This document shows positions 34,418 to 37,966 of a stretch of DNA of 42,582 bases, piece by piece (position 1 is the first letter of the stretch; every line of letters begins with the position of its first letter). The notes under the pieces are model-generated. The model ran no database searches, had not been told where the DNA came from, and was given only the letters and a program-made list of their open reading frames with translations. The DNA is from an uncultured Thermococci archaeon (GTDB lineage Archaea; Methanobacteriota_B; Thermococci; Thermococcales; Thermococcaceae), in the NCBI GenBank assembly GCA_964487115.1, contig CAZAPD010000035.1, positions 1-42,582 on the forward strand, read 5' to 3'. A program made the translations under genes and the position numbers.

Positions 34418-34476
34418 GGGCGATGGCGTCCGCCCAGGCTTCGAGCCAAACTGCCCAAAAGGGCTGATGACGCCTG
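34418..34476 (+). ncRNA. Fluoride (crcB-motif) riboswitch
   Basis: GGGCG-ATGGCGTC-CGCCC (P1 with GAUG), GGCT-TCG-AGCC hairpin, AAAC, GCCC-AAAA-GGGC, then TGATGACGCC. GGCGTC (34425-30) pairs with GACGCC (34469-74) as the pseudoknot. crcB lies downstream in the same operon. Confidence 0.93.
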
Positions 34477-34502
34477 TTCTACAACCTTTGGGAGGCGGTA
34501 GA

Positions 34503-35357
34503 ATGGGCTCGAAGCTTTATGAAATCGGAAAATATGTTAACGCTAATGCCGTTATCAAATACATTGGAGAGAGACGGCATGAGGATGGAGGTTACTGCTT
34601 TGTAACTCTCTTAGATGAGACTAACATAAATGATACATACTATGCGGTAAAGATCTATGACTTACTTGAACTGAAAATCCCGGAGAGAGAAAAAACTGCC
34701 CAGTTCCTCTTTAGTGCTGCAGGGAAGCAAACAGCAGTGGTAGCTGTTGCAATGGCAGTTGAGGGCATGGTTTTACTCGGGGCTAAAGATCTGGCAGAGA
34801 AAAAGCTTGATCTGCTATTTTCAAAGTACAATCCTCTTGAAGGGAGATTTGCTGTAGGACTCGGTGGGAGTGAAGAATTTGGAACATCAACACCGTTGGA
34901 AGCGACTTACTGGGTTTTAAGGGCGCTAAAGGCTTTGAACTACAGGATGGATTTGGAAATGAAGGGGAGGATAAGGGATTTCATCATGGAATTTAAAAAA
35001 GGAGATGGATTTGGAGTTAAGCAGCCAACGACAACGATGACATATCAGGCTATTTTTAGTCTTAATGCTCTTGGCTACGATGTTCCCAGAACACGGCATT
35101 TTGATGCATGTGAGGTCTATGGAGGCTTTACAGAGGTTCCTTATTCATTACCTCCATATTTAGAACCCACATTCTATGCCATCAGGGGATTAAGGCTTCT
35201 GGGAGATAGACCCAGATATATCAAAAGTCATATTAATTTTATCAGAGCCCTTCAAAATCCAAATGGAGGCTTTAGGAGAAGTCTTGAGATGGGTATCTCT
35301 AACTTCCAGAATACCTATAGAGCACTCAGGGCATTGGATGATCTTCTTGCCTTCTGA
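34503..35357 (+). CDS. Prenyltransferase/squalene-oxidase-repeat (alpha-alpha toroid) protein
   Basis: Repeats HEDGGY, EGRF, GDGFG, GGF and QNPNGGF, each followed by T(Y/F)xA helices. ATG 34503 follows GGAGGCGG. Confidence 0.85.
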   Translation: MGSKLYEIGKYVNANAVIKYIGERRHEDGGYCFVTLLDETNINDTYYAVKIYDLLELKIPEREKTAQFLFSAAGKQTAVVAVAMAVEGMVLLGAKDLAEKKLDLLFSKYNPLEGRFAVGLGGSEEFGTSTPLEATYWVLRALKALNYRMDLEMKGRIRDFIMEFKKGDGFGVKQPTTTMTYQAIFSLNALGYDVPRTRHFDACEVYGGFTEVPYSLPPYLEPTFYAIRGLRLLGDRPRYIKSHINFIRALQNPNGGFRRSLEMGISNFQNTYRALRALDDLLAF

Positions 35358-35377
35358 TTTTATTTTTGGTGATTAAA

Positions 35378-36079
35378 ATGGACCTGATTGGGATTTATCT
35401 GAAAGAAGCCCTTGAAAATTCGGGCTGTCCTGTGTGTAATCTCCTGAGAAAGTATGAGCGGAATGAGATAGGGACAATTCTCTATGAACATGTAAATAAT
35501 CCCTCTGTGAGAGAACAGTTTAAAGAAAGTTTGGGACTCTGTTCGTATCATGCTTGGAAATTAAAAGAGATAGCATACTCAGATCCTCTTTTAGGATCAC
35601 TCGGGGTTGCAGTTATTTATGACCATATGCTTTCTATTTACATAGAAAATTTAGAACAGAATCAGAAAATTAAAACCGGCAGATGCTTTCTGTGTGAAAG
35701 AATGGAAGAGAAAGAGAAGAGCATCATCTCAAGCTTGTCTAAGAGATTTGCGGAATTCATTGGGATTTACAGGGATTCTGAAGCCATATTATGCAAAAAA
35801 CATTACGAAATGCTATCAGCAGAGTTAAAAAAAGAAAATACTCCTTTATCAGAGGAACTAAGAAAAATACAGATTATGAAACTTAAGGAAATCAGAAGTA
35901 GAGTAGAAAGATTTATTGATAAATTCGATTATAGAGCAACAAAAGCTCCTACAAAAAAAGAGGCAGAAGCAGTTGTTCTTGCAATTGAGAGTTTGAAAGG
36001 CTTACCCTTACAGGTAAATTTCTGTGAGATTTCTAAAAAACCAAGCATTAGAGGTGTTATATTTGGAAATAGAACTTAG
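35378..36079 (+). CDS. DUF6062-like putative Zn-binding protein
   Basis: Two Cys/His modules: CPVC...CSYH and CFLC...CKKH. LYEHVNNP and FIDKFDYR motifs. Confidence 0.78.
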   Translation: MDLIGIYLKEALENSGCPVCNLLRKYERNEIGTILYEHVNNPSVREQFKESLGLCSYHAWKLKEIAYSDPLLGSLGVAVIYDHMLSIYIENLEQNQKIKTGRCFLCERMEEKEKSIISSLSKRFAEFIGIYRDSEAILCKKHYEMLSAELKKENTPLSEELRKIQIMKLKEIRSRVERFIDKFDYRATKAPTKKEAEAVVLAIESLKGLPLQVNFCEISKKPSIRGVIFGNRT

Positions 36080-36389
36080 GGTTAGTAAGGAAGAATTTAA
36101 ACGAATAAAACAAAGTAAAGAGGAAATTAAAAGGAGATTTTATAGGTTAGATGAATTGGAAAATACATTAAAAGCCCTCAGATTCCGATATCTTATTGAA
36201 CATCGAGAGAGACTCAAAAAGAAGCTTGATGAGATGAAACGCAATTATGAGGAGCTATTAGAATTTGAAAAAAAAGCTATGGACGATAAAGAGTTCCTTC
36301 TTAGAATACGACATCAGCTAAGTAAAGAAAATTGTGAATTTCGGCAACAACTTGAGGTGGGCACCTATGAAAATCGTGGTAAAACCTGA
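36063..36389 (+). CDS. Coiled-coil protein A (unknown function)
   Basis: TTG 36063 after GAGGTG; overlaps both neighbours; heptad-rich. Confidence 0.75.
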   Translation: MEIELRVSKEEFKRIKQSKEEIKRRFYRLDELENTLKALRFRYLIEHRERLKKKLDEMKRNYEELLEFEKKAMDDKEFLLRIRHQLSKENCEFRQQLEVGTYENRGKT

Positions 36390-36783
36390 AGTTGGATGGA
36401 GGAAAATAGTTTTCAAAATTCCGGATGATCATTTTGAAAAAATCAAAAGATTCGAGGAGAAATATGGATTCAGACTTGATAAAATTCTTAGAATAATAAT
36501 CCTTAGAGGATTTGTTGATTATAGGGGGGATGTAAACTTTCAGGAATTAGAAAAAGAGATTGAGTCCCTTGAACGAGAGCTATATGAATTGGAAGGCAAA
36601 TGGTCTCCACTGAAATTTAGAACATATTATCTTGCAATGGATAATCAAAATTTGGCTATCCAGATTTCAGGGCTAATTGCAGAAAATAAACGGCTTAGGA
36701 AAATCCTTGGAAAACCGGAAAGGGATTATTCTAAGATCGAGGAGTTAATACACTATTACATGGGGTTTGATAGTCGTGAATGA
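36367..36783 (+). CDS. Coiled-coil protein B with RHH-like N-terminus (unknown function)
   Basis: ATG 36367 after GAGGTGG. IVFKIPDDHFEKIKRFEEKYGFRLDKILRIII is RHH-like and is followed by a coiled coil. Confidence 0.8.
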   Translation: MKIVVKPEVGWRKIVFKIPDDHFEKIKRFEEKYGFRLDKILRIIILRGFVDYRGDVNFQELEKEIESLERELYELEGKWSPLKFRTYYLAMDNQNLAIQISGLIAENKRLRKILGKPERDYSKIEELIHYYMGFDSRE

Positions 36784-36976
36784 GCTGGAGGAAGTTGCTA
36801 AACTTCTCAAGTTGAGAGATGAATTAAAAAAAGAAGTAACATTAATGGAGAAAAAATATGAAGAGGTTCTTAGAGATCAGGAAATCCTTATGGCACTGTT
36901 GAAAAAGTTAAAAACCGAAAACAGACGGCTTCTGGAGGGGCAGAAGCATGGATATGGAGTATCTCAAAAAAGCTAA
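36776..36976 (+). CDS. Short coiled-coil protein A' (paralog of the C-terminal part of A)
   Basis: RDELKKEVTLMEKKYEEV..DQEIL..LKTEN aligns with A's RERLKKKLDEMKRNYEEL..DKEFL..LSKEN. Confidence 0.7.
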   Translation: MNELEEVAKLLKLRDELKKEVTLMEKKYEEVLRDQEILMALLKKLKTENRRLLEGQKHGYGVSQKS

Positions 36977-37220
36977 ACAGTTTCTCACTGAAAACAGAGA
37001 TGTGGAAGAATTAAGAAGAGAAATAATGGAGTTATCCTCAAAACAAGCTGCTCTAAATTATAAACTTTATGATGCATACATCACAAACAGAACTCTTGCA
37101 ATAAGAATTTATGGTTATCTAAGCGAGAATCTGCTTATGGGAGGGAATAGGCTTCCAGAGGATGCTAAAGAGATAGTTGACAAATATCTAATGGCGGGAA
37201 GGAAGAAACATGAACGTTAG
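36948..37220 (+). CDS. Short coiled-coil protein B' (paralog of the C-terminal part of B)
   Basis: GGAGG SD. ELSSKQAALNYKLY..NRTLAIRIYGYLSEN aligns with B's ELEGKWSPLKFRTY..NQNLAIQISGLIAEN. Confidence 0.75.
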   Translation: MDMEYLKKAKQFLTENRDVEELRREIMELSSKQAALNYKLYDAYITNRTLAIRIYGYLSENLLMGGNRLPEDAKEIVDKYLMAGRKKHER

Positions 37221-37581
37221 AATTTCGCTGTTTGTTATATTGGGCGGTGCTTTGGGGACATTTATACGATTTTATCTTTCTGGATTCTTACCTGTTTATA
37301 ATGATTTTCCTATTGGTACATTACTTGTTAACAGTTTAGCCAGTTTCATGCTTGGATATCTGTATGGACTATTGTTTTGGGGGGTTGAGGTACCTCCTGA
37401 ATTAAGGGCTTTCTTTGGAATTGGATTATGCGGAAGCTTGAGCACATTTTCAACATTTTCATTCGAAACATTTAACTTGATAAGAGAGAAGGAGCATTTT
37501 TTAGCATTGTTGAATGTCTCAATAAATGTTATAATAACTGTTCTTTTAGTATTTCTCGGGTTTATTTTAGCACGGAGGTGA
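37210..37581 (+). CDS. crcB: Fluoride efflux channel Fluc/CrcB
   Basis: [16 protein letters not shown] and [12 protein letters not shown] signatures; 4 TM helices. Confidence 0.96.
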
Positions 37582-37585
37582 TGTT

Positions 37586-37966
37586 ATGGTTGAGATTGAG
37601 CATTGGAACACGCTCAGAATGAAAATTTACATCGGGGAAAACGATCGCTGGGATGGAAAACCTCTGTATAAAGGGATACTTAAAAAACTCCGGGAATTGG
37701 GCATTGCGGGTGCCACGGTTTATAGAGCAACAGCAGGCTTTGGGAAGAAGAGTAGAATGCATGAAAGCGATGTTCTAAGGCTTTCAACTGATCTACCAAT
37801 AGTAATTGAAGTTGTTGATAGAGGTTATAAAATAGAGGAGGCAATCAACGAAGTAAAACCCATGATAAAGGATGGTATGATAACTGTTGAACCTGTTATC
37901 GTAGTTTGGGTAGGTACCGAGGAGGAAATAAAAAAATTCGAAAATGATGCTGTGAGAGAAGTTTAA
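37586..37966 (+). CDS. DUF190 (PII-like) protein, usual crcB neighbour
   Basis: [27 protein letters not shown] and [13 protein letters not shown]. Confidence 0.92.

Follow-up and report, generated by a model that had tools for sequence, protein, structure and literature searches.

In this study, we analysed a 42,582-nt stretch of DNA (hereafter the window; contig C35 of the uncultured Thermococci archaeon G000), which belongs to a Thermococcaceae genome and whose closest homologues carry Thermococcus names. It holds a fluoride riboswitch followed by a prenyltransferase-repeat protein gene (PT, gene 1), a DUF6062 gene (gene 2), four coiled-coil protein genes (A, B, A2 and B2), the fluoride channel gene crcB (Fluc) and a DUF190 gene. 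We consider it probable that the switch is a translational ON control, by prediction, of PT, an alpha/alpha toroid of the COG1689/TK0513 family, which would be a conserved target of such switches in several classes of archaea and would likely serve the fluoride response as an enzyme, not as an exporter, often in company with DUF6062, the coiled-coil genes being likely passengers. Since PT comes after fluoride riboswitches in several classes of archaea, and often has DUF6062 beside it, it likely has a place in the archaeal fluoride response that was not described before; genes 1 and 2 together would likely form an undescribed part of the archaeal fluoride regulon, that is, a core of two genes instead of a Fluc complex of eight. 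An earlier annotation made from the letters of the window (below, the sequence-only reading) had proposed an undescribed fluoride-response system for the whole locus; this holds for genes 1 and 2, which stay with riboswitches across archaeal classes, but not for the coiled-coil genes, copies of which are kept elsewhere.

The riboswitch and its predicted action on gene 1

The aptamer (34410-34483, plus strand) matches the Rfam covariance model RF01734 over its full length (model positions 1-64), with 51.1 bits against a cut-off of 34 (E 2.1e-11), and ends 20 nt 5' of the AUG of gene 1; its pseudoknot joins 34425-34430 to 34469-34474. A BRE/TATA-like promoter on the same strand (34381-34398, TATA at 34390-34396) is the top match of the region to a family-trained matrix (18.5 bits), with a start site expected at about 34418. 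Gene 1 (34503-35357, plus strand) encodes the 284-aa PT. The promoter, the well-formed aptamer and the eight co-directional genes with overlaps or gaps of at most 20 nt described in the sequence-only reading are all present, the Rfam model confirms the aptamer, and the prenyltransferase-repeat, DUF6062, crcB and DUF190 assignments score above cut-off (PF00432, PF19538, PF02537 and PF02641, respectively). The gaps are of +20 nt between genes 1 and 2 and +4 nt between crcB and DUF190, the other junctions overlapping by 8-29 nt. NCBIfam assigned no family to PT, DUF6062, A, B, A2, B2 or DUF190.

The expression platform is predicted at 34472-34516 (plus strand), from the leader fold and from a comparison over 73 loci. 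According to this prediction, 34472-34482 can pair with 34498-34508 across the gene 1 AUG (34503), in a helix that uses three bases of the pseudoknot 3' strand; the leader would thus possess an alternative helix that hides the start and shares bases with the aptamer, as expected of a translational platform. In the minimum-energy leader fold (-49.5 kcal/mol, z -4.0), the AUG region and the Shine-Dalgarno (34490-34495) are paired, and codons 2-5 of gene 1 pair with 34437-34447, which belongs to the hairpin inserted in the aptamer. At least 9 of the 11 helix pairs are possible in 64 of the 73 loci. Codons 2-3 are under synonymous constraint, codon 2 being GGC (Gly2) and codon 3 TCG (Ser3) in 68/73 loci, versus a GGC share of 35% (599/1709) at internal PT Gly codons; three of the five loci without GGC at codon 2 are mis-picked starts.

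Without fluoride, the pseudoknot 3' strand would pair across the gene 1 AUG, and binding of fluoride-Mg would lock the pseudoknot and free the start. The riboswitch, thus, looks translational, with direct control of gene 1 alone, and later genes would need coupling or polarity to respond. In the window, the seven downstream genes presumably share the transcript, and translational coupling or polarity could carry the response to them, damped by a T-tract at 35358-35367 (plus strand, 9/10 T). This tract lies directly after the gene 1 stop, where the sequence-only reading had seen no obvious internal terminator; it is the sole plus-strand 10-mer of its kind in the operon and may be a leaky terminator, with a comparable tract after gene 1 in just 5/73 loci. 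FttA quality control of coupling is put forward as a hypothesis in the portion of PMC11616081 available, where FttA is reported to prefer U-rich RNA. As for the Thermococcus kodakarensis homologue, the available part of a review (PMC8241225) calls it the only natural archaeal riboswitch tested experimentally, relays reports of fluoride binding and ligand-dependent expression, and states that it presumably regulates translation.

Genes kept behind the switch across archaea

A profile search for PT returned 711 representatives at E <=0.001, and a scan of GTDB genomes gave 134 confirmed stretches, of which we kept the best 80, including 57 outside Thermococcales. Among these best 80 of 134, a riboswitch is present at 30 of the 57 non-Thermococcales PT loci: directly upstream of PT in 24 (Archaeoglobi, Nitrososphaerota, Thermoproteota, Brockarchaeota, Micrarchaeota, Desulfurococcales and Bathyarchaeia), with a Na+/H+ antiporter gene between riboswitch and PT in five (Methanobacteria) and between PT and DUF6062 in one. 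Besides those 30, seven loci read PT-crcB-DUF190 and two adjoin enolase. Starting from the switch, the 22 riboswitches above cut-off in 121 Bathyarchaeia genomes precede PT (11), a Nudix gene then PT (1), DUF6062 (2), crcB (4), an MFS gene (3) or an uncharacterised protein gene (1), and the 17 in 96 Archaeoglobi genomes precede PT (11), a hydrogenase-like operon (5) or DUF6062 (1), and crcB in no case. PT occurs in 23 of the 121 genomes of the class of genome G100. The comparison suggests that, in three archaeal classes, the switch is usually placed before PT. Genes for Fluc, Na+/H+ antiporters, enolase, pyrophosphatase and formate-hydrogenlyase-like proteins lie in or near riboswitch loci, and the gene after PT varies, being DUF6062, a 155-aa protein or a Zn-ribbon-HEAT protein.

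These last two deserve a word of their own. The helical protein of about 155 aa, without a Pfam match, follows PT in 14 loci of Thermoproteota, Nitrososphaerota and Brockarchaeota (for example L129:7800-8282, L182, L186, L200 and L264), and, in Bathyarchaeia, a similar-looking one comes after DUF6062 or else after the switch. We regard this protein as a candidate for another gene of the fluoride regulon. The protein of about 130 aa with a Zn-ribbon and HEAT repeats, a possible helical partner, comes directly after PT in seven loci of Archaeoglobi or uncultured archaea and after enolase in another (L102:9123-9518). Tandem control is seen in Bathyarchaeia, where PT has a riboswitch of its own and crcB or DUF6062 has another (L188, L189, L193; L174 with L249).

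In our sample of 97 Thermococcaceae genomes, 79 of them good, the riboswitch is found in 91, PT in 93 (and in all 79 good ones), crcB in 85 and DUF6062 in 57. The first gene behind 80 fetched riboswitches is PT in 73 cases and the start of a membrane hydrogenase/formate-hydrogenlyase-like operon in 7, and never crcB; in this comparison, it is gene 1, not crcB, that stays behind the switch. The order PT-DUF6062-A-B-crcB-DUF190 is intact in 47 of 85 PT loci, and in 16 PT stands directly with crcB-DUF190 without any middle gene. Taken separately, DUF6062 is intact in 52/85 loci and A plus B in 60/85, crcB lies within the fetched stretch in 71/85, B2 is present in 12/85, and A2 and B2 are both present in 8/85. 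Loci with missing or broken middle genes are scattered over a quick tree of 82 of the 85 PT sequences (three broken PT genes left out; unrooted, no clade test), which fits repeated loss. Of the 93 family genomes with PT, four have the gene interrupted by an in-frame stop or a frameshift, namely G070 (L023), G069 (L015), G077 (L021) and G081 (L082), so that PT is dispensable, or mis-assembled, in some; in G081, the riboswitch and the PT 5' end are lost and crcB is intact.

A second fluoride riboswitch heads a membrane hydrogenase/formate-hydrogenlyase-like operon in some Thermococcus and Archaeoglobi genomes (L001, L017, L025, L027, L048, L078, L079; L205, L282, L283, L286, L287). In the Thermococcus ones, a second copy of the pseudoknot 3' hexamer directly follows the Shine-Dalgarno, possibly as part of a different platform.

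Gene 2 (35378-36079, plus strand; 233 aa) is a clear DUF6062 member, with 83.6 bits to PF19538 for a cut-off of 27 and conserved CxxC/CxxH clusters. C55, H58, C103, C106, C139 and H142 are invariant and C17/C20 nearly so, which suggests two zinc sites in its two CxxC...CxxH clusters. Its model is all-helical (pLDDT 90.3), and a search of the PDB gave no clear fold match (best Z 5.1). A family search found DUF6062 in 19 of 301 Bathyarchaeia genomes. In 15 of the 19, a riboswitch lies no more than 1.5 kb away, and PT is directly upstream in 15 of the 19, too; two of the four loci without a switch are cut by contig ends. The family is also present in 75 of 251 Chloroflexota genomes. The bacterial proteins share the family and the Cys/His pattern with the archaeal ones, but, unlike these, the Chloroflexota members have no riboswitch (0/20 loci scanned with Rfam) and no PT or crcB (0/30 loci) within about 1.5 kb; one loose aptamer-like pattern was seen at a Chloroflexota locus outside the Rfam-scanned set (L233). 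The link between DUF6062 and fluoride is, thus, seen in archaea only. A neighbourhood survey, which the sequence-only reading had called for, supports it on the side of DUF6062 in archaea, but not on that of the coiled-coil genes, whose homologues also occur at non-fluoride sites.

The coiled-coil genes lie on the plus strand, as A (36063-36389, 108 aa, inferred TTG start), B (36367-36783, 138 aa, with a possible ribbon-helix-helix (RHH) N-terminus and a coiled coil), A2 (36776-36976, 66 aa, inferred GTG start) and B2 (36948-37220, 90 aa). A2 and B2 match just the coiled-coil halves of A (E 0.002) and B (E 6e-8). A profile comparison of A with B gave a probability of 23%, and we do not claim homology between the two. 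A B-like gene is present in 79/79 good Thermococcaceae genomes, most of which have a second copy away from the riboswitch, and A likewise has a paralog in the core gene set of the family. Of the 12 core B loci inspected, most have a gene for an HhH-GPD glycosylase or a PIN nuclease nearby, and 9 hold an A paralog; in the genome of the window, the core A-B pair is on contig C55 (G000:C55:25160-25860). The coiled-coil genes are likely passengers, since copies of the pair are kept elsewhere in every good family genome. The core pair (also L237-L248), which encodes coiled-coil and possibly RHH proteins, is itself uncharacterised; a box C/D-like small RNA follows it in G000.

B2 occurs in 27/97 genomes: 11 times in the PT operon, 10 times just upstream of the second riboswitch and six times elsewhere, four of these six near the valyl-tRNA synthetase gene (valS) with no aptamer pattern. 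We had taken B2 as an independent marker of fluoride loci, given that 21 of its 27 matches are near a riboswitch; this is weakened by valS-A2-B2 without riboswitch in L297-L300, and the 10 cases upstream of the second riboswitch likely go back to one insertion of a hydrogenase cassette behind valS-A2-B2.

Could A and B (with or without A2/B2) instead be an RHH regulator recruited to the fluoride locus, adding transcriptional control? We find this unlikely. The pair is intact in 60/85 loci and retained in genus g3 without DUF6062 or crcB; the close pairs tested show dN < dS, except for A2 and B2 in one pair, fluoride-locus A/B being under purifying selection; and B2 stands just upstream of those 10 second riboswitches. 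On the other hand, the core copy sits beside the glycosylase and nuclease genes in 79/79 good genomes, B homologues were found in Thermococci only, and the 10 upstream B2 cases are likely the single cassette insertion just described. The RHH-like domains through which the sequence-only reading would have relayed the signal are hinted at for B, with weak RHH_1 matches in 4/31 members (best E 1.9e-4), CopG and NikR matches at E ~0.3 and two homologues named RHH by NCBI, but not for A (RHH_1 in 0/30 members), nor for A2 and B2, which match coiled-coil halves only. ESM Atlas placed A and B mostly in unnamed clusters, with NikA-like (0.88) and Mua (0.92) hits that are leads only.

Possible function of the toroid

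The AlphaFold model of PT (pLDDT 91.7) has the fold of a prenyltransferase beta subunit, an alpha/alpha toroid with PFTB repeats. Its best structural match is farnesyltransferase beta (Z 23.0, rmsd 2.7 A over 259 residues); protein prenyltransferase beta subunits as a group give Z 21-23 and terpene cyclases Z 16-18.5, at 12-21% identity. PT shares the toroid and PF00432 repeats with prenyltransferase beta (FTase, GGTase I/II) and class II terpene cyclase domains but, in contrast to them, has neither zinc ligands, DXDD nor an alpha subunit, and carries acidic residues at equivalent repeat positions. Indeed, the zinc site of prenyltransferase beta is marked by the motif Asp-x-Cys...His, and the general acid of class II terpene cyclases by DXDD. 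Aligned to Rab GGTase beta, PT has Y219, E221 and N270 at the equivalent positions of the zinc site, and no Cys or His is conserved at >=75% in 75 PT homologues. The stretch aligned with DXDD is N41-I-N-D44, and 69 of 75 distant homologues have Ser, Thr or Asn at position 41. Across these 75, an acidic residue is present at position 44 in 69, at 221 in 75 and at 269 in at least 70 (Gln in Thermococcales), and R259, S260 and S266 are nearly invariant. Going by the repeat register of the alignment, the conserved acidic residues would fall at the metal-ligand positions of prenyltransferases.

From this model and residue pattern, our tentative preference is for PT as a metal-dependent phosphate-handling enzyme, ahead of a binder of fluoride or metal-fluoride species and then of an isoprenoid enzyme. 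We favour a phosphate-handling enzyme because many members of the known fluoride regulon are Mg/phosphate enzymes that fluoride inhibits (available part of the review PMC11139923) and because PT neighbours enolase, pyrophosphatase and Nudix genes. The weakest step of the proposed mechanism, which we hold as possible rather than probable, is that the toroid would bind a divalent metal via the carboxylates D/E44, E221 and E/Q269, and phosphate or diphosphate via R259-S260. As a Mg-dependent phosphate-handling enzyme, it could be raised in amount to offset inhibition by fluoride, like the enolase and pyrophosphatase whose genes adjoin its own in Methanobacteria.

That the toroid is no enzyme at all, and instead acts as a binder and buffer of fluoride or Mg/Al-fluoride species, or as a shield for some fluoride-sensitive target, DUF6062 then being the adaptor, seems doubtful to us. 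It has in its favour that PT lacks the catalytic motifs of its two fold relatives, that acidic residues, Arg and Ser are what is conserved, and that the downstream partner varies; but buffering would require high abundance, the identity of 65-90%, with many invariant residues, suits a substrate site, and the neighbours are known Mg/phosphate enzymes. We regard as improbable an isoprenoid (prenyl-diphosphate) transferase or cyclase that would remodel archaeal lipids, or prenylate a protein, and so limit HF entry. Archaeal lipids are isoprenoid, and the best structural matches are those of that fold; against this stand the missing zinc site and DXDD, the absence of an alpha-subunit gene nearby and the low identity to the matches.

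One may go further and suggest, with some reserve, that COG1689 is the main riboswitch target in several classes of archaea and forms, together with DUF6062, a defence route distinct from both export and the known housekeeping enzymes. In this route, a protein of prenyltransferase fold, rebuilt round a carboxylate metal site, would detoxify or bypass a fluoride-blocked phosphate step. The window has the same aptamer as the known fluoride riboswitch regulon (crcB motif, RF01734; Weinberg 2010, PMC2864571; review PMC11139923), but its first controlled gene encodes an uncharacterised toroid, not an exporter, and neither PT nor DUF6062 is among the regulon genes named in the part of that review available. 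What is known already is the riboswitch, Fluc, the crcB-DUF190 pair and TK0513 behind the switch, the position of which was published in PMC4247193, while expression of the TK0513-family gene as leader in Pyrococcus abyssi was published in PMC3849170 (both seen in part). The cross-archaeal link to PT is new to the literature searched, which holds no mention of DUF6062, COG1689 or a prenyltransferase-fold family as a fluoride target, with the caveat that earlier tables of crcB-motif gene contexts may list the gene; no prenyltransferase-fold fluoride target was found in the available part of the preprint 10.64898/2026.10.21.760802 either. The orphan family COG1689 and the domain of unknown function DUF6062 would gain a precise physiological context, directly testable in a genetically tractable archaeon, and the work could reveal an unknown fluoride-sensitive step, with relevance to fluoride tolerance and organofluorine biodegradation.

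crcB, the composition of the locus and its neighbours

In the window, crcB (37210-37581, plus strand; 123 aa) has 94.9 bits to PF02537 and is above the cut-off of TIGR00494, and DUF190 (37586-37966, plus strand; 126 aa, PII-like) has 128.9 bits to PF02641. DUF190 is the constant partner of crcB, including where crcB is unlinked from the switch. This is the case in genus g3, where crcB is 57-1035 kb from the riboswitch in seven of the eight genomes fetched and is a fragment on another contig in the eighth, the switch retaining PT and A/B and the distant crcB-DUF190 having no riboswitch; it is also the case in G020. Elsewhere, crcB-DUF190 would often be separately promoted. Our matrix scan found promoter-like sites 5' of crcB in at least 9 of 63 loci, for 6 of 487 background windows, and none 5' of DUF6062, A, B and DUF190 (0 of 45, 51, 56 and 63 loci, respectively); one has to keep in mind that 9/63 is a floor, since inspection by eye shows, 5' of crcB in some 17 further loci, a CCAAAA-x-CTTAAGTA variant that the matrix does not pick up. 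A gene on the opposite strand for a 430-aa membrane protein, cation/proton-antiporter-like by eye, lies just before crcB in several Thermococcus genomes (L038, L041, L047, L050, L052, L055, L057, L061).

T. kodakarensis TK0513-TK0514(crcB)-TK0515 (Jager 2014, PMC4247193, seen in part) resembles the window in having the same riboswitch, the TK0513 family first and crcB-DUF190 after. It differs in having no gene between TK0513 and crcB, for five in the window, and a start site of its own for crcB, where the window has no promoter-like site. The primary start sites were mapped there at 440500 (TK0513; 85 nt 5' of the gene) and 441484 (crcB); the authors found the position of the switch before TK0513, not crcB, surprising and argued that crcB is not predominantly under its control. 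In Thermococcus onnurineus, all six genes TON_0791-0796 are transcribed, with a drop after gene 1, going by the first-column values of the part of PMC5316973 available (851, 183, 105, 206, 48 and 334; column headings not seen); the middle genes were equated with DUF6062, A and B by order and length, and the portion of the supplement available has no start-site rows for these genes. The Pyrococcus furiosus operon table places PF1418 and PF1416 in separate units but is uninformative, the A gene between them being unannotated there.

The sequence-only reading had all six uncharacterised proteins co-induced with Fluc, in a complex that scaffolds or gates the channel. Linkage is what speaks for it, with crcB in the fetched stretch of 71/85 PT loci and the full six-gene order in 47, PT-crcB-DUF190 in 8 Archaeoglobi loci, tight gene overlaps, and dN below dS with the exception already given. 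We nevertheless hold it to be very improbable: crcB is unlinked in g3 and G020 and has its own start in T. kodakarensis, promoter-like sites are found before crcB (9/63 loci) but not before DUF6062, A, B or DUF190, 16 loci have PT and crcB without a middle gene, and many PT loci of other archaea have no crcB nearby. The middle genes are, moreover, often missing or broken, A/B copies occupy a non-fluoride site and A2/B2 stand behind valS without a riboswitch. A single eight-gene operon conserved with Fluc is, thus, not what we find, A2 and B2 being together in 8/85 loci.

Several points weigh against the switch-PT-DUF6062 core that we prefer. Related genomes make our counts non-independent. Of the 57 distant PT loci, 27 have no riboswitch match, some of them being cut by contig ends; in five genomes tested from the class of G100, the switch is upstream of PT in one, within 5 kb downstream in three and unlinked in one; and in G012, which lacks crcB, PT is retained beside an aptamer that has decayed. 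Regarding the platform, just 47/73 loci have a paired AUG in their minimum-energy fold, the start-codon helix has almost no compensatory change, and its AUG pairing decreases when modelled at 80 C. What argues for an enzymatic role of PT is its fold and residue pattern only, and we found no fluoride-induction or knockout results for PT or DUF6062 in the literature searched. Finally, our matrix found no promoter-like site inside the operon of the window, that is, none before crcB either, and crcB overlaps B2, so that co-transcription is plausible and crcB probably sits on the riboswitch transcript there.

The AT-rich middle genes had also been read as an inserted module. The G+C count of 15/60 at 35821-35880 is correct, and 60-nt tiles as AT-rich number 7 of 709 in the window. 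Base composition does not support a horizontally inserted module, as the middle genes do not stand out from the flanking genes of the locus: crcB (GC 0.35, GC3 0.30) is as AT-rich as DUF6062, A and B (GC 0.33-0.35, GC3 0.27-0.31), and all locus genes have much the same GC3 (0.63-0.66) over 40 loci. It is as a whole, crcB included, that the DUF6062-to-crcB stretch (GC 0.374, GC3 0.337) falls under the genome's 5th percentile for long ORFs.

Beyond the locus, the downstream neighbour coaBC starts at 38020, preceded by a TATA-like run at 37981-37987. Upstream, an alpha/beta hydrolase gene (32775-34322) lies between the riboswitch promoter and a divergent archaemetzincin (M54) gene, the latter being the direct neighbour of the promoter in many relatives. 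Lastly, 41575-42582, which holds a GAPDH-like gene, has a G+C of 0.52-0.57 for 0.41 in the window.

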